This document shows, in pieces, positions 3,401-60,000 of a DNA stretch of 64,000 bases (position 1 is the first letter of the stretch; each line of letters begins with the position of its first letter). The stretch is from assembly GCF_058153355.1 (NCBI RefSeq), contig NZ_CM177019.1. One strand, 5' to 3'. The notes beneath the pieces are model-generated. The model was not told where the DNA came from. It made no database searches and saw nothing but the letters and a program-made list of their open reading frames with translations. The translations under genes were made by a program, and so were the position numbers.

Positions 3401-6400
3401 CACTATTACACCATTGCCCTGGATAACGGCGCACAGGCTATCGGCGGCGATACGCCGGTTTACGTCAGTTGCCTGACGACGGCGAACAAACCTGCCAGCA
3501 GCATTACGCTGGATGTGGTTGATAACGCACAGTGGGCTGCCGGAAATAACGCGGCGAAGCTGAAAAAAGGCGAAACGCTACGGGTTAAGGTAACGGTAAA
3601 AGATGCGCAGGGTAATCCGCTCACGGATATGCCATTTAAACTGAGTCGCGGAGACGGTTATACCCGCACGGGCGAAAAACATATTGCCGGTAGTGGCGAT
3701 GCGCTGGTGGCACCGGTGGTGATTAACAGTGGGCTGGCGGATGAAACGACGTTGAACGACACCGCGGGATTTTATACTGCCATGACCGGTAGCGACGGCA
3801 GCAAAATCCTCAATATTACCCGCCCGGATACTCACGGCACCAAAACGGCGCTGACGGCGACGTTGTATTCCGATGCAACAAAAAAAGACAGCCTGGATAC
3901 GATCTTTACTGTGGTCACCAGCCCGGATAGTAGCAAAGCGAAAATGTGGGGGCATATGCCGGAAACGGTGACGGCTGCGGACGGTACGGTATTTAAACGC
4001 CCGCTGTTGTTGAAGGAACTGGCCTATCAGACTGGGCGAACATCGACGTCTGAAGACAATGAAAACTGGGCGTTGTTTAACATTAATTATGCGAGTTCTT
4101 CCACGACGTATAGTGGCTGTGGAACCAACTATATTCCGACTCAAGCCGGTCTGACGTCACTGTTTGCTAATAATGCGGGCAACACCATGAAAACCGTGCA
4201 GGGCTGGCCGGTGGCAACACGCTATTTGTCCAACACGTCCGACAACGGCAGCATGGAGCAGCGTAACTACAAGGCGGTAGATCTCAGCAATGGCACGAGT
4301 GCGGCAGTGTCATCAACGGCGCTGCAACTGCTGACCTGCCAGACCACGCCGGTAACCACGGTGGGCCAAATTCTGCTGGAAGCGGCAGATCCGGCGACGC
4401 TGGATACCACCTATAACGTGGTAAAAGCGAAAAAAGGCGAAGAATCCGTGGTGCGCGTCACCACCAAAGATACGCAAGGCAACCTGGTGGGCAATACGGC
4501 ATTTATCCTGACGCGTGCCAACAGCGTGAGTCGGGCTAACGCATCAGCAACCGCGAGCGTGGGCGCGCTGACGGTGACGGATGCTTGGGGAAATACGCGA
4601 AATAATTTCCAGTCGACGAGTGAAACGATTTACGGCGTGACTGGTGCAGACGGGTCAACGACATTTACCCTGAAACAGGATAACAGTACCGGGTTAAGAA
4701 CCGATCTCACGGCAAAACTGGATACGTCCAGCAGCGTCAAGGCGACGCTACCGGTGGTCTTTACTGTCGTGACCAGCCCGGATTCGCCAAAAGCGAATTT
4801 TTGGGGACATATGGCCGAAACGGTGATGGCCTCCGACGGTACAATCTATAAACGACCACTGTTGTTGAAAGAGCTGAGTAACACCAGTGGTCGAAATTCT
4901 ACGGCTGAAAACGGTGAAGATTGGGCAAGATTCACCTGGACTCAGTCGGCTGACACCAGCATGAATGGGTGTGGTACAGATTATATGCCGACGCTGGATG
5001 GACTGAAGTCTTTGTATGACGCCAATAGCGGTAATGTGATGAGTACGGTGCAGGGATGGCCGGTAAAAACGACCTATCTCACCAATACCCCGAGTGATAC
5101 GCAAACAGGGAGCCGTTACTACAATGTGGTGCAACTGAATACTGGTGCAGTCTCACAAATCTCGACGAACACAGTCGTGCTACAAACCTGCCGCACAACG
5201 CCGTTGACGGCTGCTAGCCAGATTACGCTGGAGGCCTCAGACCCCGCGCAATTTGTCAGCATTGACAGTACGCTTAGCGCGATCAAAGTGCAGAAAGGCG
5301 ATAGCGTGTCGATCCGCATTTCGACTAAAGATGCACAGGGGAATTTAGTCGGCAATACGCCGTTTGCCCTGAAACACGCTAACCCGGTCAATCGCCAAAA
5401 TGTGGCGTCAACATCGCAGAAAGTGTCGGTCACGACTGCGTCGGGTACGACGGTGGATACCACTGCATCGACCATTCTGTATGGCGTGACCGGGCCAGAC
5501 GGAACCACCACGATGACACTCCGACAGGATGCGTCTACTGGACTCAAAACCGACTTTTATGCTCTGTTGAACGATACCGGCGTGTCGTCGAACACCTTGC
5601 CAGTGATCTTCACCGTCGTCACCAGCCCGGATACACCGCTGGCGGCCAACTGGGGGCATATGGCAGAAACCTTTACCAGCAGCAAGGGAGTCACCTTCAA
5701 ACGGCCTTTCCTCAAAGCTGAACTTTCTGGTGGTACGGCGGTAACGACCAATAATGAAGTCTGGTCGCGCCTGACAGCAACGGAGAAAACGGATGCCAGC
5801 AAGGCTGGGTGTGATGAGAGTTATCAACCGCTGATGACTGACATGCAGGGGTTGTATGCGGATTACCCTAACAACCAGTTGGGCACGGTGCTCGGCTTGC
5901 CGACTTCCGCCGGGTATATGTGGGCCTACGACATGATGACGGTTTCTGGCAGCAGCTGGAGCAACCAGGCATATTCGCTCGTTAATGGTCAGACAGTTCA
6001 GGCATCGTCCAGTTATACGGCGGTAGTGATGTGCCTGGTGGAACCGCATACCGTTCCGGCGATGATAGAGATCACTTCAACAGCACAGGATGCGGCAAAA
6101 ACGGTCAGCAATGGTGGTCGACCGAGCGCCGTAGCGAAGAAAGGTGAGACGATTCCGCTGACGGTGACCGTACGTGATAGCACCGGGAATCCGGTACCCT
6201 ACGCCGACTTTACCCTCACGCGTGGAACGACGCTGGATCGCTCGAAAGCAACCGTTAACTCGAGTGCGGACGATCTTACCGTGAAGTCATTGATACCCGC
6301 GAACAGTGACGCTGGGCTGACGGCAAATGGGGCAAAAGTGCTCAGAACAACGGGCAGTGATGGCACAGCCACCTTTGAAGTGAGCCAGAATGCCACGACA

Positions 6401-8590
6401 GGACTGGCGACCCCCATAACCGTCACGCTGGCGCGTGATGTAACCAAAACCGCCACGCTGGATGTTATCTACACGGTGATAACCAGCCCGGACTCACCGA
6501 GCGCGAAATTCTGGGGGCACATGCCGGACACCTTTACCAGTTCGGCAGGCGTCACCTTCAGACGACCGCTGCTGAAAGCCGAAGCGACTTCAGGGTCATC
6601 GATTAGCACTAACGGCAATGGTGAAGTGTGGTCGTATATGAGCAACGTTCAAAATTTAACATCGACAGATTGTCCGCTGGAGAATCAACCGCGCAGTAAT
6701 GAATTGTTGGATTTGTATAATGATCATCCCAACGGCGCGATAATGACTGACCTGGGGCTGCCGATATATGCAGGCAAGTGGTGGGCTTATGATATGGTCA
6801 TGCCGGATTTATATACGTGGCAGTATCAGACGGTCAGCCTGAGCGCAGGAGATATCGCGAAGAGCTCGGCAAGCAACGCGCTGATGCTTTGCCTGACGAA
6901 GCCGCATCCGGCAGGCGTCAGCGTAATGTTGACGTCATCCGCAATGGATAACGCCAGAACCCTCAGTAATGGCGGGCGACCCAGCGCGTCAGTGAAAAAA
7001 GGTAACCCACTGCCAATTGTGGTGACGGTCAAAGATCGTGATGGCAACCCGCTGGCGGGAGAGGCCGTGACGCTCAGGCGTGGTTCAGCGATGAGTCGTT
7101 CAGGAGCAGGAGTGGGCACGCCGGCAAATGCAATGACGTTGACAGAATTGACACCTGTGTCGGCGGAGTTTTCTCTGGCCGCACACGATACGCAATGGCA
7201 AGGTTTCACCGGCAGTGATGGTACGGCCACTTTCAATGTTGAACAGCCTGAGACCATCGGCCTGGCCATTTCGTTCACCGCTATACTGGCGCGAGATGTA
7301 GCAACTACCAGCGTCCTTGATGCGATCTTTACCGTCGTTACCAGCCCGGATTCCGCAATGGCGACCTACTGGGGCCATATGCCGGATACGGTAACGGCGG
7401 AAAACGGCGTGGTCTTTGAACGGCCTAAATTGTTGAAAGAGCTGCCGTCGAGCGCCGGAGTCAGTCAGGTGACGGATAACAATGAAGTGTGGCCGTTGTT
7501 TAAGGCAACGCAAAGGGAAGATAGCAGCCTCAGTCCTTGTGAAGCGGCACGTCGGCCATTGAGCGATGATTTATTATCGCTCTACGCGCGCTATCCGGGG
7601 AACACGCTGACGACTCAAATCGGCTGGTCTACGAAGTATGCATGGTGGGCACTGGATAACAAGCAGGGGAATGCCCTGGTTGTCAGTCTGAATAATGGTT
7701 TTGAGTCGTCGACGGCGAGTACGGGGTATCAGGGATGTCTGGTCAATCCCCGCGCGACCGTCTCCAGCGTCACGCTGACATCGACGGCGCTGGATGCCAC
7801 TACGCAGGCAGCGAAGGTAAAAAAAGGTGAAGCCGTGCCCCTCGTTGTTACCGTAAAAGACAACGCCGGGAAGCCGGTACCGAATGTCGCTTTCACCTTA
7901 AAACGTGGTGATGCCATGCCACGTAACAGCGGGGCGACGTTGTACGGTGATGTTGCGGCGATGGATGATATGACGGTACAACCTGCCAGCGGGACGGTGG
8001 TAACGCTGGCTGACAGTGGGAATACGGTCGACGGAGTGACTGGGGCGGACGGTACGGCAAGTTTTACCGTTCGTCAGGATAATACGCCAGGATATAAAAC
8101 GCCGTTGACGGTGACGCTGACGGATAACGCCACAATAACGGCGATGCTGGATACGATTTTCACCGTCGTTACCAGTCCAAATGTACCCACAGCCCATTTT
8201 TGGGGACATATGTCGGATACCACTGTGGTAAACGGTAAAACGCTACATCGTCCACAGTTGGAATCAGAACTGCCATCGGCAGCCATCATGGTGGCAACAC
8301 CGAACGTCAATAATGAGACGTGGGCACTGGCGCATACTGTTGACTCGCAAAAATGGGATATTTCGCAGCAGTGCGGCCTCCTTGATTTTGCACCGAATTA
8401 TGCGGATTTAGAGGCTCTGCACACTAACTTCAGTACTCTCGGATGGCCGTCAATGCCTAATACCCCCTATCTATCTAAAGACAGAGAGCGGTCAGGTAAG
8501 TATTACTGCGGTATGATTGAAGAGACAGGTTCTCAATCTTGCAGTATTGAGCCTACCAGCACGCCGGGATTTGCTACTTGTGTCAGGTAA
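500..8590 (+). CDS. Giant secreted repeat protein, 2696 aa, RatA/RatB-like Ig-domain repeat protein
   Basis: Single uninterrupted ORF. GGAG at 486-489 precedes the ATG at 500. N-terminus has a signal-peptide-like stretch ([17 protein letters not shown]). Nine repeats each carry the motif [13 protein letters not shown]. Confidence 0.8.
1100..8400 (+). repeat. Nine tandem, divergent ~800-860-bp coding repeats inside the giant ORF
   Basis: The motif accagcccggac (TSPD) recurs near 1463, 2267, 3071, 3917, 4772, 5621, 6482, 7340 and 8171. Each is preceded by a KKGE..V.VT.KD..GN block and followed by a NE.W..CG..GWP..YW block. Confidence 0.8.
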
Positions 8591-11707: not shown

Positions 11708-13285
11708 ATGACGGAAAACATTCATAAGCATCGCATCCTCATTCTGGACTTCGGTTCTCAGTACACCCAACTGGTTGCGCGCCGCGTGCGTGAACTGGGT
11801 GTTTACTGCGAACTGTGGGCGTGGGATGTGACAGAAGCACAAATTCGTGACTTCAATCCAAGCGGCATTATTCTTTCCGGCGGCCCGGAAAGCACCACCG
11901 AAGAAAACAGCCCGCGTGCGCCGCAGTATGTCTTTGAAGCAGGCGTACCGGTATTCGGCGTTTGCTATGGTATGCAGACCATGGCAATGCAGTTGGGTGG
12001 TCATGTTGAAGCCTCTAACGAACGTGAATTTGGCTATGCGCAGGTTGAAGTCGTAAACGACAGCGCCCTGGTTCGCGGTATCGAAGATGCTCTGACAGCA
12101 GACGGTAAACCTCTGCTCGATGTCTGGATGAGCCACGGCGATAAAGTTACCGCTATCCCGTCCGACTTCATCACCGTAGCCAGCACCGAAAGCTGCCCGT
12201 TCGCCATCATGGCAAATGAAGAAAAACGCTTCTATGGCGTACAGTTCCACCCGGAAGTGACTCACACCCGCCAGGGGATGCGCATGCTGGAGCGTTTTGT
12301 GCGTGATATCTGCCAGTGTGAAGCCCTGTGGACGCCAGCGAAAATTATCGACGATGCAGTAGCCCGTATCCGCGAGCAGGTAGGCGACGATAAAGTGATC
12401 CTCGGCCTCTCTGGTGGCGTGGATTCCTCCGTGACTGCAATGCTGCTGCACCGCGCAATCGGCAAAAACCTGACTTGCGTATTCGTCGACAACGGCCTGC
12501 TGCGTCTCAACGAAGCAGAGCAGGTTCTGGATATGTTTGGCGATCACTTTGGTCTGAACATTGTTCACGTTCCGGCAGAAGATCGCTTCTTGTCAGCGCT
12601 GGCTGGTGAAAACGATCCGGAAGCAAAACGTAAAATCATTGGTCGCGTTTTCGTTGAAGTATTCGATGAAGAAGCGCTGAAACTGGAAGATGTGAAGTGG
12701 CTGGCGCAGGGTACTATCTACCCTGATGTTATCGAATCTGCCGCGTCTGCAACCGGTAAAGCGCACGTCATCAAATCTCACCACAACGTGGGCGGCCTAC
12801 CGAAAGAGATGAAGATGGGCCTGGTTGAACCGCTGAAAGAGCTGTTCAAAGACGAAGTGCGTAAAATTGGTCTGGAGCTGGGCCTGCCGTACGACATGCT
12901 GTACCGTCACCCGTTCCCGGGACCAGGGCTTGGCGTTCGTGTGCTGGGCGAAGTGAAGAAAGAGTACTGCGACCTGCTGCGCCGTGCTGATGCCATCTTC
13001 ATTGAAGAACTGCGTAAAGCGGACCTGTACGACAAAGTTAGCCAGGCGTTTACCGTGTTCCTGCCGGTACGTTCTGTTGGCGTAATGGGCGATGGTCGTA
13101 AATACGACTGGGTTGTGTCTCTGCGTGCCGTCGAAACCATCGACTTTATGACCGCACACTGGGCGCATCTGCCGTACGATTTCCTTGGTCGCGTTTCCAA
13201 CCGCATTATCAATGAAGTGAACGGTATTTCCCGCGTGGTGTATGACATCAGCGGCAAGCCACCGGCGACTATTGAGTGGGAATGA
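11708..13285 (+). CDS. guaA: GMP synthase (glutamine-hydrolysing)
   Basis: 525-aa ORF beginning [40 protein letters not shown]. Confidence 0.95.
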
Positions 13286-13310
13286 TTTGATCCCTGCACT
13301 ATGAATTAGC

Positions 13311-13342
13311 AAAACCCTCTGTTACTACAGAGGGTTTTTTAT
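13311..13342. terminator. Intrinsic terminator between convergent guaA and yfgI
   Basis: Stem ccctctgt/acagaggg with a 4-nt loop, followed by tttttt and preceded by aaaa. Confidence 0.75.
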
Positions 13343-13378
13343 ACTCACGAATCATAGGATTGAAGTTACTGACATCGC

Positions 13379-13918
13379 TTAGTTAAACCAGCTGTCCGAT
13401 TTGTTCTCTTCTGCTTTGCCCACGCTTTTCATCAGATCGCGACCGCCTTCAGTCATATTCCTGTTTGCGTCAGCTTCAGATTGCACCACATCGGTTTGCG
13501 CAGCTTTGTGCTTCAGTTCCTGATCGATAAATTCGTTTTCTCGCTTAACGCGGGCTTCTTCTTTCGCCAGCGCCAGTTTTTGTTTCTGAATCTCTAAGCT
13601 GCGTAGCTCATCTTCATAACTTTGATCGCGTTTCTTGTCCGCAGTGGCTTCGGCGTCCAGTTTATCCTGACGAGCTTTCTTATTCGCCGCTGCCGTTGCC
13701 GCTCTTTTATTAGCCGCGGCCTGGGCGTTTGCGCGACGTTGCTTCTCTTGCTGGATTTCCCTGTTGCGCTCCGCGACCCATTCGTCATGCTGCCTTTGCT
13801 CTTCATTTTTACCTTGCTGTTCCGCTTCTGCGACAGCAGAGAGTTGATCCTGCAATGATGAGGCGATAGCCGGATAGCTTAAGGAGGCTAAGATGGCGCA
13901 AAGAAAAACTTTCTTCAT
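13379..13918 (-). CDS. yfgI: Uncharacterised secreted protein YfgI
   Basis: 179-aa ORF with signal peptide (MKKVFLCAILASLSYPAIA) and a charged, coiled-coil-like body; position matches K-12 yfgI. Confidence 0.8.
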   Translation of the reverse strand: MKKVFLCAILASLSYPAIASSLQDQLSAVAEAEQQGKNEEQRQHDEWVAERNREIQQEKQRRANAQAAANKRAATAAANKKARQDKLDAEATADKKRDQSYEDELRSLEIQKQKLALAKEEARVKRENEFIDQELKHKAAQTDVVQSEADANRNMTEGGRDLMKSVGKAEENKSDSWFN

Positions 13919-13933
13919 GACTCCTCCTGATTA

Positions 13934-14452
13934 TTAGCTCTTTTCAGGACATTTGGTATTTGGCTGAATACGCGTTTCGTTATACGTCGTGGTAATAACA
14001 ACGGCTAAACCTGTCGTAAACTGGCACTCTTTACCCACCTGGGTGGAGGTATACACTTTGGTGCCTTCCTTATACGTTAGAGAAACACCTTCCACTAAGG
14101 TTTTATCATTCACCATAGAACCTGCTGCCGCGCCAACAGCTCCGCCGCCAACTGCACCTGCCGTCGTTCCGGAATTGCTGCCAGACCCCACGTTGTGGCC
14201 GATAACACCGCCAGCGACTGCACCAATAAGCGCGCCGAAGGCTTGTGCGTTTCGTTTATTTTGGGAGTTGTCTACGGCAACTTTTGCGGGAAGAATGGAA
14301 ATAATATTAACGGTTTTAGTTTCTTGTTTGGTATTCAGTTGATCGGTTTGATAAACATCGGCGGCATGATCATCAGCATTTGACTGGCATCCTGCCAGAG
14401 TGAATGACGCTAACATTGCCACAGGTAGAAGACATTTTTTAAATTTCATCAC
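13934..14452 (-). CDS. yfgH: Outer-membrane lipoprotein YfgH (glycine-zipper)
   Basis: 172-aa ORF with a lipobox (LAGC) and a Gly-rich zipper (GALIGAVAGGVIGHNVG). Confidence 0.8.
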   Translation of the reverse strand: MMKFKKCLLPVAMLASFTLAGCQSNADDHAADVYQTDQLNTKQETKTVNIISILPAKVAVDNSQNKRNAQAFGALIGAVAGGVIGHNVGSGSNSGTTAGAVGGGAVGAAAGSMVNDKTLVEGVSLTYKEGTKVYTSTQVGKECQFTTGLAVVITTTYNETRIQPNTKCPEKS

Positions 14453-14762: not shown

Positions 14763-14954
14763 CTAACGTTGTACCGGTGATTCGACGGAGAGTGTGGATT
14801 GCTGAGCTTCTTTTTTGCTCTGATGGTGCTGCCATGCACCGACGGACGAGTAGATAAAACGGCCAAAGAAGAAGATAAAGCTGATGAGCAGTACGATACG
14901 GGTCATGCGACTGTTAAATCGGTGTCGTTTTCGCATACTGGTTGCCTGACTCAC
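14763..14954 (-). CDS. yfgG: Small membrane protein YfgG
   Basis: 63-aa ORF at the K-12 yfgG position, in an AT-rich intergenic tract, with one hydrophobic segment. Confidence 0.6.
   Translation of the reverse strand: MSQATSMRKRHRFNSRMTRIVLLISFIFFFGRFIYSSVGAWQHHQSKKEAQQSTLSVESPVQR

Positions 14955-22008: not shown

Positions 22009-22009
<1 letters not shown>
21371..22009 (-). CDS. purN: Phosphoribosylglycinamide formyltransferase 1
   Basis: 212-aa ORF beginning MNIVVLISGNGSNLQAIIDAC; its start overlaps the purM stop. Confidence 0.95.
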
Positions 22010-23064
<1,055 letters not shown>

Positions 23065-24083: not shown

Positions 24084-25373
24084 ATGACGCGCCGTGCTAT
24101 CGGGGTGAGTGAAAGACCGCCACTTTTACAAACAATCCCGCTTAGTTTGCAACATTTGTTCGCCATGTTTGGTGCAACCGTCCTGGTGCCCGTCTTATTT
24201 CATATTAACCCGGCGACTGTACTGTTATTCAATGGTATCGGGACGCTGCTGTATCTCTTCATCTGTAAAGGGAAAATCCCGGCTTATCTTGGTTCCAGCT
24301 TTGCCTTTATTTCACCGGTATTGTTACTGTTGCCGTTAGGGTATGAAGTCGCGCTGGGCGGCTTTATTATGTGCGGCGTGCTGTTCTGCCTGGTTTCTTT
24401 TATCGTGAAGAAAGCGGGGACCGGCTGGCTGGACGTGCTGTTTCCACCTGCGGCAATGGGCGCAATCGTTGCCGTCATCGGTCTGGAGTTGGCGGGCGTA
24501 GCTGCCGGTATGGCAGGTTTACTCCCGGCTGAAGGGCAAACGCCAGACTCCAAAACCATCATCATCTCCATTACCACGCTGGCAGTCACGGTTTTAGGTT
24601 CCGTGCTGTTTCGTGGTTTCCTGGCAATTATCCCGATTTTAATTGGCGTGCTGGTGGGCTACGCGCTCTCTTTCGCAATGGGAATTGTCGATACCACGCC
24701 GATTATTAACGCCCACTGGTTTGCGCTGCCAACTCTCTATACGCCGCGCTTCGAGTGGTTTGCCATTCTGACTATTCTGCCAGCGGCGTTAGTGGTTATT
24801 GCCGAACACGTAGGGCACCTGGTAGTAACGGCTAATATCGTCAAAAAAGATCTGCTGCGCGATCCAGGTCTGCACCGTTCGATGTTTGCTAACGGCTTGT
24901 CGACCGTGATCTCCGGCTTCTTTGGCTCTACGCCAAACACCACCTACGGGGAAAACATTGGCGTGATGGCGATCACCCGTGTTTACAGTACCTGGGTTAT
25001 CGGCGGGGCGGCGATTTTCGCTATCCTGCTTTCCTGCGTCGGTAAACTGGCTGCAGCTATCCAGATGATCCCATTGCCGGTGATGGGCGGCGTTTCGCTG
25101 CTGCTTTATGGTGTTATCGGTGCTTCCGGTATTCGTGTTTTGATCGAATCGAAAGTGGATTACAACAAAGCACAGAACCTGATCCTGACTTCTGTCATTT
25201 TGATCATCGGTGTCAGTGGCGCGAAGGTAAACATCGGCGCGGCGGAGCTGAAAGGTATGGCGCTGGCGACCATCGTCGGTATCGGCTTAAGTTTGATCTT
25301 CAAACTGATTAGTGTGCTGCGCCCTGAAGAAGTGGTGCTGGACGCAGAAGACGCGGATATAACAGACAAATAA
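24084..25373 (+). CDS. uraA: Uracil:H+ symporter
   Basis: Start placed at [36 protein letters not shown] after AGAGGA, giving 429 aa. Confidence 0.93.
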
Positions 25374-25467
25374 TGTACCGACCGGGCAGTGCTGCTGCCC
25401 GGTTCAAACATCATGGGATTCTGTGGTAAACTTCTCGCGATTTTGTGAAATCCTGGTTGAGGTATCT

Positions 25468-26169
25468 CTGAACACACCGGCACAGCTCTCTTTGCCACTT
25501 TATCTTCCTGACGACGAAACCTTTGCAAGTTTCTGGCCGGGGGATAACTCCTCTTTACTGGCCGCGCTGCAAAACGTGCTGCGTCAGGAACATAGCGGTT
25601 ACATTTATCTCTGGGCACGCGAAGGCGCGGGGCGCAGTCATCTGCTGCACGCGGCTTGCGCGGAATTGTCGCAGCGTGGCGATGCGGTGGGCTATGTCCC
25701 GCTGGATAAACGCACCTGGTTTGTTCCGGAAGTGCTCGACGGTATGGAGCATTTGTCGCTGGTCTGTATCGACAACATTGAGTGTATTGCAGGCGATGAG
25801 TTGTGGGAGATGGCGATTTTCGATCTCTACAATCGAATTCTGGAATCGGGTAAAACACGGTTGTTAATCACCGGCGATCGTCCACCGCGGCAGTTGAATC
25901 TGGGATTACCGGATCTCGCGTCGCGACTCGACTGGGGGCAGATCTACAAATTGCAGCCTCTTTCTGATGAAGATAAGTTGCAGGCGCTACAGTTACGCGC
26001 GCGTTTGCGTGGTTTTGAACTGCCGGAAGATGTGGGGCGTTTCTTGCTGAAGCGGCTCGACAGAGAGATGCGCACGTTATTTATGACGTTGGATCAGTTG
26101 GATCGTGCGTCGATTACCGCGCAACGTAAGCTGACCATTCCGTTTGTGAAAGAAATTCTGAAACTGTAG
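25468..26169 (+). CDS. hda: DnaA-inactivating protein Hda (regulatory inactivation of DnaA)
   Basis: AAA+ fold protein ending ..[11 protein letters not shown]. Start assigned to the CTG at 25468 ([19 protein letters not shown]) by analogy with K-12, giving 233 aa. Confidence 0.8.
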
Positions 26170-34056: not shown

Positions 34057-35772
34057 TTACTTCAGCGGCGAACGGTTACGATCAATGCCGTAGCGTTCGA
34101 TCTCTTTATACGGCACGGTTTTTGACTGGCGCTTGCGCACATCAACCAGCGTCACACGGTCGGTACAGGTGTAGCAGGGATCAAGGCTACCGATAATCAG
34201 CGGTGCGTCAGAAACGGTATTGCCGCGCAGCATGTAACGCAGCACTGGCCAGTTGGCGTAGGTGGCGGCACGACAGCGCCAGCGGAACAATTTTTGGTTA
34301 TCACCGAGCATGCTCCAGTGCACGTCTTCACCGCGTGGCGCTTCAACAAAGCCCAGCGCGAATGCGTGAGGTTTATAGCTAAAGCCTTCGGTCAGCAGTG
34401 GGGTATCCGGCATGTTGTCGAGGGCAAATTCCAGCATTGTCAGCGAATCAAACGTCTCTTTGACACGGACCATCACGCGGGAGAAGACATCGCCGCCGGT
34501 AAAGGTAAACAGCGTTTTTGGAATATTGCCGTAGTCGGCGTAGGGGTGATCAAAGCGCAAATCACGGGCAAAACCACTGCCACGGATCAGCGGCCCTACG
34601 GGGCTATAATCACGGGCGATTTGTCGGTCGAGAATGCCAATGCCCTGAGTGCGTTGTTCCATATTCGGCGTGGCAAGCAGCATCTCTACCAGCTCCGACA
34701 CGTCGGCGCGCATCTCGCGCACCAGTTTCATCGTTTGCAGACGTTGCTCTTTGAGAATATCGCGGCGAACACCACCAATCAGATTCAGACCGTAGGTTTT
34801 ACGCGACCCGGTCAGCAATTCCGCCATCGTCATCGACTTTTCCCGCACGCGGAAAAATTGCATAAAACCGGTATCAAAACCAACAAAATGGCAGGAGAGA
34901 CCAAGGTTGAGCAAATGACTATGCAGCCGTTCGACTTCCAGCAGAATCGAGCGAATAGTATGCGCTCGTTGCGGCACCTCAATCCCCAGTGCATTTTCAA
35001 CCGAGTTGGTATAGGCCACACTGTGGGCAAAACCGCAAATCCCACACACGCGGTCCGACAAGAAGGTCACTTCGTTGTAGCCCATCCGCGTTTCTGCCAG
35101 TTTCTCCATGCCGCGATGGACATAAAACAGGCGGTAATCAGCATCGACAATTTGCTCGCCATCCACAAACAAGCGGAAGTGACCTGGTTCATCGGAGGTG
35201 ATATGCAGCGGGCCAACAGGGATCACCCGCGCATCGCTGTTGCCCTCGTTGATAAACGGATACGTTTCGGTATCAGTCGTCGGTTCAGGGCGCAGTCGAT
35301 AATCCATCGCGTCTTTGCGCAGCGGATGCATATCTTCCGGCCAGTCATCGGGCAACACCAGGCGACGCTGATCCGGCAGGCCAACCGGAATCAGCCCGTA
35401 CATATCGCGAATTTCTCGCTCGCCCCAGACCGCGGCAGGGACGCGCGGTGTGACTGACGGAAACTCCCGACTGTCGGCATCGACCAGTGCCTTCACCACG
35501 ATCCAGCATTTTTCGGCCCCTTCCATTGAAAGGGCATAATAAACCGCGTAATGACCGTTAAGTGTCCGCTCGTCGTTGCCAAACAGGACCGGAAGCCAGC
35601 CATCATGTTGATAATAAAGATAATGTACAACGTCAGGCAGCAGATTTATTTTCACCGTAATGGTGACCTGTTCAGGCGTTTGTCGCTCTTCATCCAGCAC
35701 CGCGCCGGGGAACTGCGTTTTCAGGGCGGCGAGAATCGCTTCGCCACGATTTGACGATGAATTAACGTTCAC
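34057..35772 (-). CDS. hyfG: Hydrogenase-4 [NiFe] large subunit
   Basis: Start assigned to the GTG (codon 35770-35772) preceded by GGAGA ([14 protein letters not shown]). N-terminal RGxCGxCxxxH-type and C-terminal DPCxxC nickel-binding motifs. Confidence 0.9.
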
Positions 35773-37342
35773 TGTGTTTCTCCGAAACAGATGCGGTGCC
35801 TGAAGGCAAAAAATCATGCCAGGTGCTACGTTGTGCAGGCAGGTCGTGCGTCCCTGAGAGGACTATAGTGGAAGCGCCCGCCAGGATCCTGATGACAGGT
35901 TGTGGAATATGCGTTCCCATCGCCAGCATCATGACCAGCAGAATCACCATTGGCGAGGTGGTCAACCAGCCAAGTTCACCCCGGTTAACGGCCTGCGGCG
36001 GTTTCGCCATTAACACCCGCGCAGCCATCCGTACCAGGCCCGCCAGCACCAGCGTTAACAGCAATAACAGCAGGACGATAATCAACAGGTGATTACGAGC
36101 CAGTCCGGCGGTAACGGTCATAAATTCGCTAAGAAAAATGTTGAAGGGCGGCATCCCGGCCAGCGCCAGCGCACCGCCGCCAAACAGCACGGCGGTAAAT
36201 GGCATGATTTTGAGCATTCCGCAGACGACGTTGAGATCGCGCGTGCCGTACTTGAGCAGTACATTGCCGGAACCGCAGAACAGCAGCGTTTTTGCCAGAC
36301 TGTGGTTTAAGGTGTGCAGCAGCGCAGCAAAAATTCCCAGCGGCCCGCCAATGCCTAGCGCCACCGCGACCAGTCCCATGTTCTCCACGCTGGAGTACGC
36401 CAGCAGACGCTTAATGTCCCGCTGTACCAGAATGAAAAATGCCGCCACGGCAACCGACAACATGCCGAAGATGAGCAACAACCGGTTGGGGAAATCGCTG
36501 CCGATGGCCTGGCAAATAATGATGTAATAGCGAATCAGCACCAACAACGCGCAGTTCAGCAATACGGCGGAGAGCAGGGCGCTGACCGGACTCGGCGCTT
36601 CACTGTGAGCATCCGGCAGCCAGGCGTGCATGGGAAATAGCCCGGTTTTGGTGCCAAAGCCAATTAGCACAAACACAAAGGCCAACAGCATTAATGTTGG
36701 GTCAAGCAAGGACGATTGCTTAAGAACCTCGCTCCAGAATATCGCCATTTCTGCCTGCGGCATAACGCTGGCGGCGTTGGCGTATACCAGCACGGTACCG
36801 AACAGACCAAAAGCGACACCAACAGTACAAATAATGATGTACTTCCATGCAGCTTCCAGAGATGAACGCTGACCGTAAATGCCTACCAGAAACGCCGAGC
36901 TTAAGGTGGTGGCTTCGATTGCCGCCCACATCACAATCAGGTTATTGCTGGTAACAACCAGCAGCATGGTGAACAAAAACAGATGGAAGAAACCGTAGTA
37001 ATCGCACAGCGTAACGGGTGAAAGCTCGCCGTGAGCCACTTCATGACGCATGTAGCCAATCGAGTAAACACCGGTGAGAAAGCCAATCACACCAAGAATG
37101 GCGAGGAACAAACCGCCCAGACCATCAATATGAAGCCACAGTCCCGCAGCGAATATTTCTCCCGCATCAGCGGCAGTTTGGACCACCCACAGTGCCAGAA
37201 TCAGCAGCAGTGTGATCCCTAAGCTATGTAGTACTGTCACCGTGCGAGTCGCAGAGTGTTCCCGTTTCCGGCAGGCAAAACAGAGCAGCGAAAAAAGTAG
37301 CGGCGTGAGCAGGAGTAAAGCGAACATCACAGAATAACTCAT
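35762..37342 (-). CDS. hyfF: Hydrogenase-4 membrane subunit F (NuoN/antiporter-like)
   Basis: 526-aa polytopic ORF. Confidence 0.88.
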
Positions 37343-43310: not shown

Positions 43311-43781
43311 TCAGGCGTGTTCTTTCAGCCAGTTCAGCACAACGTCGTGGTGATTGCTGGTTTTGAAATCGTCAAAGACATGTTCGATTTTGCCATCAGC
43401 GTCAATCAGGAAGCTGATGCGATGAATACCATCGTAGGTTTTGCCCATGAAGGACTTTTCACCCCAGACGCCGAATTGTTCGCACACCTGGTGGTCCTCA
43501 TCAGACAGGAGCGTAAAGTTAAGCAGCTCTTTTTCCGCAAAACGGGAGAGTTTTTCGGGTTTATCGGTGCTGATACCCAGCACATCAACGCCCGCTTTTT
43601 TCAATTCATCCATGTTATCGCGTAAGCTGCAGGCCTGTACGGTACAGCCGGGAGTCATGGCTTTTGGGTAAAAATAAACCAGAACACGCTGTCCCTGGAA
43701 GTCGGTCAAATTAACTTGTTCTCCGTCTTGATCCGGCAAGCTAAATTTCGGTGCGATATCACCGGCTTTCAGTGGATTCAT
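43311..43781 (-). CDS. bcp: Thiol peroxidase / bacterioferritin comigratory protein (peroxiredoxin)
   Basis: 156-aa ORF with the peroxidatic Cys motif region (FYPKAMTPGCTVQAC). Confidence 0.9.
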   Translation of the reverse strand: MNPLKAGDIAPKFSLPDQDGEQVNLTDFQGQRVLVYFYPKAMTPGCTVQACSLRDNMDELKKAGVDVLGISTDKPEKLSRFAEKELLNFTLLSDEDHQVCEQFGVWGEKSFMGKTYDGIHRISFLIDADGKIEHVFDDFKTSNHHDVVLNWLKEHA

Positions 43782-44353
43782 TACTTAACTCCATCCTGTT
43801 CATCATGTGGGGAATAATTGACGACGTTTATACTGCCTTGTGCATTGAGTTCTGTACATAGGGCTTTAAACGCTTGCTCAATATTTGCTGCATCCGCAGA
43901 GGCGGGACTGTGGGCGGTTATCTGAATATGCAACTGTACAGCCCGTTCATTTTCAGCAGGTTGCGTGCGCGACACCAGCTCCGCAATGTTCATATGGTGC
44001 GCGTCGAAAAGTGCCGTGAAGCGTTCAATTAAATGCGGGGAGTCTGCCACATCGACCTGAACCCAGACAGATGCTGGCATTGGCGGACGCGGACGCGCCG
44101 TCGTGCGCTTCATCACGATTAAAAGATCCAGTTCGGCACCTTTCAACGGTAACGTTGATTCAATCAGAGTGATGGCATTCCATGAACCGGAAAGCAGCAT
44201 GATAAACGTGAACTCTTCTCCCAGCATTGCCAGGCGACTGTCTTCGATATTACAGCCGCAACTACTGACATGACGGGTGATGGTGTTCACAATTCCAGGG
44301 CGATCGGCACCCAACGCAGTGATCACCAGATAATGTTGCGATGACAGTGTCAA
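43781..44353 (-). CDS. gcvR: Glycine cleavage system transcriptional repressor GcvR
   Basis: Tandem ACT-domain protein. Start assigned to the TTG at 44351-44353 (..TLSSQHYLVITALGADRPGIV), giving 190 aa; the track ORF extends 22 codons further upstream. Confidence 0.75.
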   Translation of the reverse strand: MTLSSQHYLVITALGADRPGIVNTITRHVSSCGCNIEDSRLAMLGEEFTFIMLLSGSWNAITLIESTLPLKGAELDLLIVMKRTTARPRPPMPASVWVQVDVADSPHLIERFTALFDAHHMNIAELVSRTQPAENERAVQLHIQITAHSPASADAANIEQAFKALCTELNAQGSINVVNYSPHDEQDGVK

Positions 44354-44498
44354 ACTGGTTATTCCTTTAAGGGGTGAGTTGTTCTTAAGGAAAGCATAAA
44401 AAAAACATGCATACAACAATCAGAACGGTTCTGTCTGCTTGCTTTTAATGCCTTACCAAACGTACCATTGAGACACTTGTTTGCACAGAGGATGGCCC

Positions 44499-58094: not shown

Positions 58095-59795
58095 TTACAT
58101 TAGCTGGCTTTCCTCACCCTCCGCAGAGCGAAAGCTAATACTCACTAACGTGCCGCCACCGGAAGGTTGTGAAAAAGTCAGCGTTCCACCCAGTCGTTCC
58201 GCGCGTTCGCGCATAATATTCAGACCATAGTGACCTTCGGGTTCTTTCGGTTCTCCGATGCCAATCCCGTTATCACGGATATAGACTGTGTGATTGCCGT
58301 CCGGCGCGGTGACGCAACTAACGGCTATTTCGCTGGCGTTGGCGTGCTTCATCGCATTGAGTACCGCTTCGCGAATAATTTGCAACAAATGCACCTGCAT
58401 TTGCGCATCCAGCGCCAGTGTTGGCAGACGGCAGTCGAGAGTCAGTTTTGCGCTGGTTTGATTTTGTAACGTATCCAGCATTTCCCGCAACGCGGAGGGA
58501 AGATCCGCTTGCTGCAGCGTCAGGCGGAACGTGGTCAACAGCTCGCGTAACTGTCGATAAGCATCATTCAATGCCTGGGAGAAATCGGCCATGATATTTT
58601 GTGCGGTGGCGTTATCTTCCGGTATCGAACGTTTAAGTAACGTCAACTGGATACGTAAGTAAGAAAGCACCTGGGCCAGCGAATCATGTAATTCCCGTGC
58701 GATGGTGGCACGTTCTTCCATCAACAGTAACTGCTGAAAATGCTTCTGCGCCTGATTAAAGTACAAACCGCGCCCCAGCATCGACGAAACGCTGTTAAGC
58801 AGCGGTTCTGATGATGACACGTGGCTATTTTGCCAGTGCAGTTCGCCGTAAACCGTCTCTTGCATCGTTACCGGTAAAATCTGCATCGGCAATTCGGGGT
58901 TTGGTTTCCCTTCACTAATCCGCCAGTTTTCACCGACATTCAATTCCAGATATTCAGCCGCTTCATTGTCGCGAACAATCTGCAAAATATGGCGGAAACA
59001 ATGCACATCTATCTGGCTGGTGTTCAGCGCCTGCGAACACTGATACAACACCTCCAGGCGACGCTTGGCCTCGTGGAGATCACGGGTTTTTTCTTCTACT
59101 GACGCTTCCAGCGAACGATACAATTTATGCAGCTCGCTCGACATCTGGTTAAAGGTTTTGGCCAACAGTCCCAGCTCATTGGGCAGACTGGTATCCAGCG
59201 GCGGCGAATCGAACTGGCCGTGTTCAATACGCTGACTGGCGGTAACCAGCTGATTCAGCGGGGCAACCACCTGATGGCGTATGCGGCGCAGAGTAAAAAA
59301 GACCAGCGTGAAAATACCGATGCCGCCAGTCAGGGAGATCGCCACCACCAGCAGCATTTTGCGTTCGGCGTAGTGCTGTAAAGCCAGCACGAACAGGTCT
59401 ATCTGATTAACATAATTATTAATATTGGCCTGATACCACGGCAAATCGCCCTTGCTGAGCCGATTATTCATCTCCAGCCAGTTGGCATTCAGATGCGCAT
59501 AGCGGGTTTTTACTGCCTCTGGCACATACCAGACGTTGAGATTGGTTAACACCGGTGAGTGCAGTGCCTGTTGGAACAGCTGGCGATGCGCATTGAGTTG
59601 TGGACTGCCGCTTTGCAAGTCGTAGCCTAGGCGGTAACTCTGCATACGCAACGATCCGGCAATATTGATAGCCTCAGCGTCGCGCAAACTGCTCGCCAGA
59701 GTTAGCAGTGCGATACCCGTGGAAAGAATCGACAGCAGCACAATGTAAAAAAAGGCCCGGGCCAAACTGGCCGAGACGGGGCGTTTAACAATCAC
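58095..59795 (-). CDS. narQ: Nitrate/nitrite sensor histidine kinase NarQ
   Basis: Start assigned to the internal GTG (MIVKRPVSASLARAFFYIV), giving 566 aa. HAMP and HisKA_3/HATPase regions are present. Confidence 0.9.
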   Translation of the reverse strand: MIVKRPVSASLARAFFYIVLLSILSTGIALLTLASSLRDAEAINIAGSLRMQSYRLGYDLQSGSPQLNAHRQLFQQALHSPVLTNLNVWYVPEAVKTRYAHLNANWLEMNNRLSKGDLPWYQANINNYVNQIDLFVLALQHYAERKMLLVVAISLTGGIGIFTLVFFTLRRIRHQVVAPLNQLVTASQRIEHGQFDSPPLDTSLPNELGLLAKTFNQMSSELHKLYRSLEASVEEKTRDLHEAKRRLEVLYQCSQALNTSQIDVHCFRHILQIVRDNEAAEYLELNVGENWRISEGKPNPELPMQILPVTMQETVYGELHWQNSHVSSSEPLLNSVSSMLGRGLYFNQAQKHFQQLLLMEERATIARELHDSLAQVLSYLRIQLTLLKRSIPEDNATAQNIMADFSQALNDAYRQLRELLTTFRLTLQQADLPSALREMLDTLQNQTSAKLTLDCRLPTLALDAQMQVHLLQIIREAVLNAMKHANASEIAVSCVTAPDGNHTVYIRDNGIGIGEPKEPEGHYGLNIMRERAERLGGTLTFSQPSGGGTLVSISFRSAEGEESQLM

Positions 59796-60000
59796 ACGCG
59801 TCTTCTCCACATAAAATCATTAATGTTCCAGTTTGCTGAAATGCAATTTAATCAGTGATGGGATTATTTGATCTGCCACAGTTTATAGCGAAATAGTGAC
59901 TTATTCTGGGCACATGAACATTGCCGATTCCCCTGTAAGTCGGGTAATAACAACACTCATATAAAGAATAAGGTTTTTACAACCAAAAAAGAAGGTCGTT

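Follow-up and report, generated by a model that had tools for sequence, protein, structure and literature searches.

Translation starts of hda, gcvR, purM, hyfG and narQ in an Escherichia coli chromosome region: a conserved CTG start and four ordinary GTG or TTG starts

At which codon does translation of hda begin? In the 64,000-nt stretch of DNA analysed here (contig NZ_CM177019.1, hereafter the window), a mechanical longest-ORF track opens the gene with GTG at 25423, whereas a sequence-only reading of the window had placed the start at a CTG codon (25468-25470). The same reading had put gcvR at TTG 44353, purM at GTG 23046, hyfG at GTG 35772 and narQ at GTG 59795, and had warned that automated annotation of this strain could set all five genes wrongly. 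Each of these codons was found at the coordinate given and opened a frame of the expected length, and the track ORFs did begin elsewhere, at TTG 44419 for gcvR, GTG 23061 for purM, ATG 35817 for hyfG and GTG 59810 for narQ. The question was therefore which codons are the genuine starts, and how far the warning holds.

The window was identified as E. coli chromosome covering the purN-purM, upp-uraA-hda, hyf, gcvR and narQ region, with 95.6-97.3% identity to K-12 MG1655 and 98.9% to strain EC42405, the closest complete genome. For start comparison, 39 K-12 MG1655 genes of the region were projected onto the window. The results showed 34 ATG, 3 GTG, 1 TTG and 1 CTG starts, and the five genes listed by the sequence-only reading made up the complete non-ATG set among these 39. 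For all five genes, the position and codon of the start were those of the curated K-12 MG1655 annotation, and PGAP, the automated pipeline of NCBI, had set the same five codons in EC42405, CTG for hda included. Shine-Dalgarno pairing was also stronger at the five annotated starts (-5.5 to -7.0 kcal/mol) than at the track-ORF starts (+0.5 to -4.0 kcal/mol). The homology-guided starts were thus borne out, since they equal the K-12 and PGAP starts, have the better Shine-Dalgarno sequences and are kept across genera.

The discrepancy with the track ORFs comes from how a longest-ORF track is built, and the longest mechanical ORF start differed as well for about ten ATG-start genes of the window (upp, uraA, dapA, bamC, purC, ppk, hyfR, hyfC, hyfA and nudK). 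We also considered an enrichment of non-ATG starts in the window and rejected it, because 5 of 39 is below the approximately 18% usual in well-annotated bacterial genomes (10.1101/063800), with P(X>=5) = 0.86. When the PGAP annotation of the nearest genome was projected onto the window, two further GTG starts appeared on the reverse strand, those of yfgH (13934-14452) and yfgG (14763-14954), which the earlier list lacked; for yfgH the annotated start is the same as the longest-ORF start. Another difference from the nearest genome lies between guaA and yfgI, where EC42405 carries about 3.4 kb (positions 5169-8580 of its locus, L002) that are missing from the window (13285-13379) and encode a response regulator, an integrase fragment and an AAA ATPase.

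An in-frame CTG is uninformative by itself, so the hda start has to be judged by its conservation, by the strength of its Shine-Dalgarno sequence and by stop codons. The hda coding sequence read from the CTG occupies 25468..26169 on the forward strand and encodes a 233-aa protein. We compared it with hda loci from 80 species-representative genomes in more than 25 genera of Enterobacteriaceae, giving 81 sequences with the window. As a result, the CTG was invariant in 81/81 sequences, while the leucine codons 9, 11, 13 and 30 of the gene were each represented by 3-6 different codons. The Shine-Dalgarno sequence GAGGT, which lies four bases 5' of the CTG (25459..25463, forward strand; -9 to -5), was conserved in at least 99% of the 81 sequences, and pairing with the 16S 3' end amounted to -7.0 kcal/mol. 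Variable sites were distributed 9/4/27 over the three codon positions in codons 1-30, compared with 15/15/14 in the 45 upstream bases. Codon periodicity was therefore present only from the CTG on, indicating that the coding constraint on hda begins at this codon. Moreover, in 46 of the 80 species the frame contained a stop codon 5' of the CTG, without ATG, GTG or TTG between the two, and even within Escherichia the upstream frame was broken by a 1-nt insertion in one locus (L004). All these results showed a CTG where the conserved protein begins, no usable canonical start and a well-spaced Shine-Dalgarno sequence, which is the pattern of a CUG start.

The locus with the insertion (NZ_JAATUR010000003.1), recorded under the name E. 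coli strain SCPM-O-B-8794, shares only about 91% identity with the window, and that of Escherichia sp. MOD1-EC7003 (L003) about 96%. Both are without the hyf operon and focB, and in both yfgO is joined directly to the bcp-gcvR region.

The protein that begins at the CTG was next compared with known Hda. It was 100% identical to residues 21-253 of PDB chain 5x06_E, and its clamp-binding motif QLSLPL at residues 6-11 agreed with the pattern QL[SP]LPL. Homologues carried PF00308 and PF22688, corresponding to the AAA+ domain and the Hda lid.

Could the gene instead be translated from the GTG at 25423..25425 (forward strand), so that a 248-aa protein is made and the CTG is an internal leucine codon? 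This GTG opens the longest hda ORF, was the start in K-12 annotation before 2014 and is, as a start codon, far superior to CTG (10.1101/063800), and the 248-aa Hda is common in public protein collections, where it was found on at least 1000 contigs. However, the GTG was not conserved in frame, 46 of the 80 species have a stop and no canonical start in front of the CTG, and the codon periodicity was absent upstream of the CTG. Its Shine-Dalgarno pairing was also weaker, with -4.0 kcal/mol compared with -7.0 kcal/mol at the CTG.

The GTG further overlaps a conserved element, TGGTAAACT (25424..25432, forward strand), which resembles the extended -10 element of promoters. A motif count written for the purpose recovered the element as TGnTAAACT: a TAnnnT hexamer stood 39-45 nt 5' of the CTG in 87 of 88 sequences, and in 86 it was accompanied by the extended -10 TG. 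A strict sigma-70 (two-hexamer) and terminator scan of 25300-25520 gave no hits. From its position and conservation we infer that TGnTAAACT is a putative promoter element of hda, and if it is the promoter, the transcript would begin 3' of the GTG.

Published K-12 data also bear on the 248-aa protein. EcoGene 3.0, citing Su'etsugu 2008, names hda as the first gene of E. coli for which a CTG start was demonstrated, and as cited there, N-terminal work on K-12 Hda placed the start at the CTG and not at the upstream GTG (PMC3531124). Tetracycline ribosome profiling (TetRP) notes that the K-12 records of 2006 and 2014 place the hda start 45 nt apart, and its signal was located at the 2014 site, which is the CTG (PMC4909307, Table S3). 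The crystal structure of the Hda-clamp complex, 5X06, is likewise numbered 1-233 with 6-QLSLPL-11 (PMC5397184). The sequence-only reading had proposed mapped N-termini or ribosome profiling as the check; for hda this had already been answered in K-12, where the N-terminal work, as EcoGene cites it, and TetRP both led to the CTG rather than to the track-ORF start. The 248-aa reading is thus already contradicted by published data, and we regard it as highly improbable. The CTG start of hda has been established database knowledge since 2008-2014; reviews of DnaA and Hda did not mention the start codon.

Some gene callers output a third form, a 225-aa Hda made from TTG codon 9 (25492). TTG is a canonical start and this form is found on at least 1000 contigs, but a start at codon 9 would split the clamp-binding motif QLSLPL, and the codon was TTG in only 43 of the 81 species, with CTG in 37. 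There was virtually no Shine-Dalgarno sequence in front of it (-1.7 kcal/mol), and codons 2-8, which would be left untranslated, were conserved as protein with the variation at the third position. This form is even less probable than the 248-aa one, so the CTG at 25468 is retained as the start of hda.

Hda from outside Enterobacteriaceae is usually annotated differently. Among the best 120 Hda clusters from a public protein search, 57 were 235 aa long and began M-x-L-N-T-P, and these came mostly from Erwinia, Yersinia, Hafnia, Serratia, Dickeya, Pectobacterium, Xenorhabdus and Proteus. We examined the DNA of seven such loci (L088-L094, bases 395-412), including Yersinia, Hafnia, Erwinia, Proteus and Dickeya, and all seven read GAG GTG NNT CTG AAY. 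The annotated GTG start is here part of an extended Shine-Dalgarno sequence, GAGGTG, two codons 5' of the conserved CTG. Pairing in front of this GTG, scored in five loci, was between +1.4 and -2.7 kcal/mol in four of them and reached -5.7 kcal/mol in Proteus, compared with -9.2 to -10.9 kcal/mol for the CTG. In the triplet between GTG and CTG, the third base was fixed as T and the first two bases varied, the inverse of what a coding sequence would show. In the 81 Enterobacteriaceae sequences, the base after GAGGT was never G, so this GTG start never occurs there. These comparative data suggested that the CTG start with its Shine-Dalgarno sequence may be conserved across Enterobacterales and that the 235-aa annotation may begin two codons too early, a proposal for which we consider the chances evenly balanced. 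If confirmed, it would be a small and concrete correction for Yersinia, Erwinia, Hafnia, Dickeya and Proteus.

The same kinds of evidence were collected for the other four genes, in all of which the conserved protein starts at a GTG or TTG that is itself conserved and preceded by a Shine-Dalgarno sequence. The gcvR coding sequence (43781..44353, reverse strand, 190 aa) begins at TTG 44353, and this start is supported by the K-12 match (b2479, TTG; same position and codon) and by conservation. Its Shine-Dalgarno sequence AAGGA (44363..44367, reverse strand) gave -5.6 kcal/mol, compared with 0.0 at the track-ORF start, and the sequence AGGAAGAAC ahead of the TTG was conserved in at least 90%. 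The TTG was kept in 55 of 56 loci, the single exception being an alignment offset, and in the codon analysis of the 53 usable loci it was present in 53/53, with variable sites of 10/5/28 downstream and 11/13/13 upstream. A stop codon 5' of the TTG with no canonical start between was found in 17 of these 53 loci. In the literature on gcvR we found no paper pairing the gene with UUG and nothing usable on its start codon.

For purM (22009..23046, reverse strand, 345 aa), the GTG at 23046 was kept in 71/71 loci and again matched K-12 in position and codon (b2499, GTG). Periodicity was 4/4/22 downstream and 13/13/15 upstream of it, and in 16 of the 71 loci an in-frame stop lay 5' of the GTG with no canonical start between. 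The Shine-Dalgarno sequence GGGGA (23055..23059, reverse strand) gave -5.5 kcal/mol, compared with -0.2 at the track-ORF start. The 90%-identity cluster into which PurM (345 and 350 aa) falls is represented by an HtpX protease and includes many HtpX proteins, apparently a clustering artefact that does not affect the window.

The hyfG coding sequence (34057..35772, reverse strand, 571 aa) begins at GTG 35772 and shares 11 nt with the end of hyfF. Its Shine-Dalgarno sequence GGAG (35780..35783, reverse strand) lies within the 3' end of hyfF and gave -6.6 kcal/mol, compared with +0.5 at the track-ORF ATG. In seven other genera (seven loci), the gene had a GTG behind GGAGAG, 4 codons upstream of the aligned position, so the comparative support for the predicted hyfG start is thinner. 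K-12 hyfG (b2487) has the same GTG at the same position as the window.

Further downstream the two hyfG genes differ, since that of K-12 encodes 555 aa, compared with 571 aa in the window, and 48 nt (16 aa) are missing from K-12. They were lost by in-frame deletion between a pair of GCCCGTGATT direct repeats; in the window they lie at 34570-34617 (reverse strand), and the deleted segment was nearly invariant in HyfG of seven other genera. Among complete E. coli genomes, an 84-nt probe across the segment matched 2179 and a control hyfG probe 4294, so that about half of the hyfG-bearing E. coli appear to be deleted as in K-12. A paper on the difficulty of studying E. coli hydrogenase-4 did not mention this deletion.

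The narQ coding sequence (58095..59795, reverse strand, 566 aa) begins at GTG 59795, in agreement with K-12 (b2469, GTG; same position and codon) and PGAP. As narQ was absent from all 80 fetched hda loci, homologues were obtained by protein search and contig look-ups. Most of the full-coverage predicted homologues (50-87% identity) began at M[ITL]VKR, and their DNA had GTG or TTG at the start, immediately preceded by TGA in 3 of 4 loci.

We also weighed whether at least one of gcvR, purM, hyfG and narQ is made as two isoforms, one from the annotated start and one from an upstream in-frame start. This is most plausible for narQ, in which a second GTG (59810) lies five codons upstream with a modest pairing of -3.3 kcal/mol, a 571-aa NarQ is annotated on 156 contigs, and other E. 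coli genes have documented dual starts. However, the upstream GTG overlaps the GGAG Shine-Dalgarno sequence (59805..59808, reverse strand) of the annotated start, which pairs with -6.4 kcal/mol, and the narQ homologues of other lineages have a stop codon immediately 5'. In addition, all four genes are absent among the alternative-start genes of TetRP Table S3 (PMC4909307). Two isoforms therefore seem unlikely, and a single start at the annotated codon is preferred for each of these genes. Experimental start mapping for the four genes was not found in the accessible literature, and the supplements of other start-site studies contained none of the five genes.

Taken together, the five sites are almost certainly genuine, already catalogued translation starts of conserved E. 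coli genes; for this strain, the evidence is the identity with K-12 at hda and the conservation of the sites. All five are already in the reference annotation, so the finding is correct and ordinary and adds nothing new.

To see how the warning about automated annotation fared, mis-set forms were counted by exact-sequence look-up of public contigs. For hda the concern was justified, as the mis-set 248-aa and 225-aa forms were each found on at least 1000 contigs, as was the correct 233-aa form, and a 241-aa form was present in Salmonella. PGAP did not fit the warning, having set all five genes correctly in EC42405. Mis-set forms of the other four genes exist too, but only as a small minority: the 212-aa form of gcvR was found on 18 contigs (correct 190 aa, at least 1000), the 350-aa form of purM on 63 (correct 345 aa, at least 1000), the 571-aa form of narQ on 156 (correct 566 aa, at least 1000) and a 570-aa form of hyfG on 20. 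Gene callers restricted to ATG, GTG and TTG cannot set hda correctly, and three Hda lengths are now widespread in public data.

The part of the warning that referred to this particular strain did not hold, as nothing in the annotation risk is particular to it. In K-12 (b2496; CTG in U00096.3 / NC_000913.3), both the 233-aa protein and the 45 nt that precede the CTG, GAGGT included, are identical to those of the window, and no difference was found at hda, with the host strain about 97% identical to K-12 in nucleotides. A strain-specific hda initiation region was rejected on this ground.

How might these starts work? In gcvR, purM, hyfG and narQ, the ribosome uses ordinary alternative start codons, TTG or GTG, each with a Shine-Dalgarno sequence before it. 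The hda gene is the one rare case: its CUG forms an imperfect pair with the initiator tRNA, and initiation at such a codon reaches only about 1-2% of that at AUG (10.1101/063800). The strong GAGGT, four bases 5', places the ribosome on this weak codon, and the protein begins Met-Asn-Thr-Pro, with the clamp-binding QLSLPL at residues 6-11. Since the CTG was never replaced by ATG, GTG or TTG in the 81 species although other leucine codons vary, we infer that the weak codon may be maintained by selection, which would keep the Hda level low. Phylogenetic inertia or an RNA constraint on the initiation region could contribute to the invariance besides selection. If the CTG is indeed kept throughout the order, this would point to a weak start as part of keeping Hda, a replication brake, scarce.

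Other non-canonical starts are known in E. coli. EcoGene 3.0 lists yfjD as another CTG start (PMC3531124). With regard to regulation, hda and infC differ, in that autoregulation has been described for infC and no such regulation has been reported for hda. The genes infC and pcnB start with AUU, and the AUU of infC is the codon through which it is autoregulated via IF3. In the codon itself they are alike: the CTG of hda, like the starts of yfjD, infC and pcnB, is a near-cognate start whose initiation rate is a few percent of that of AUG.
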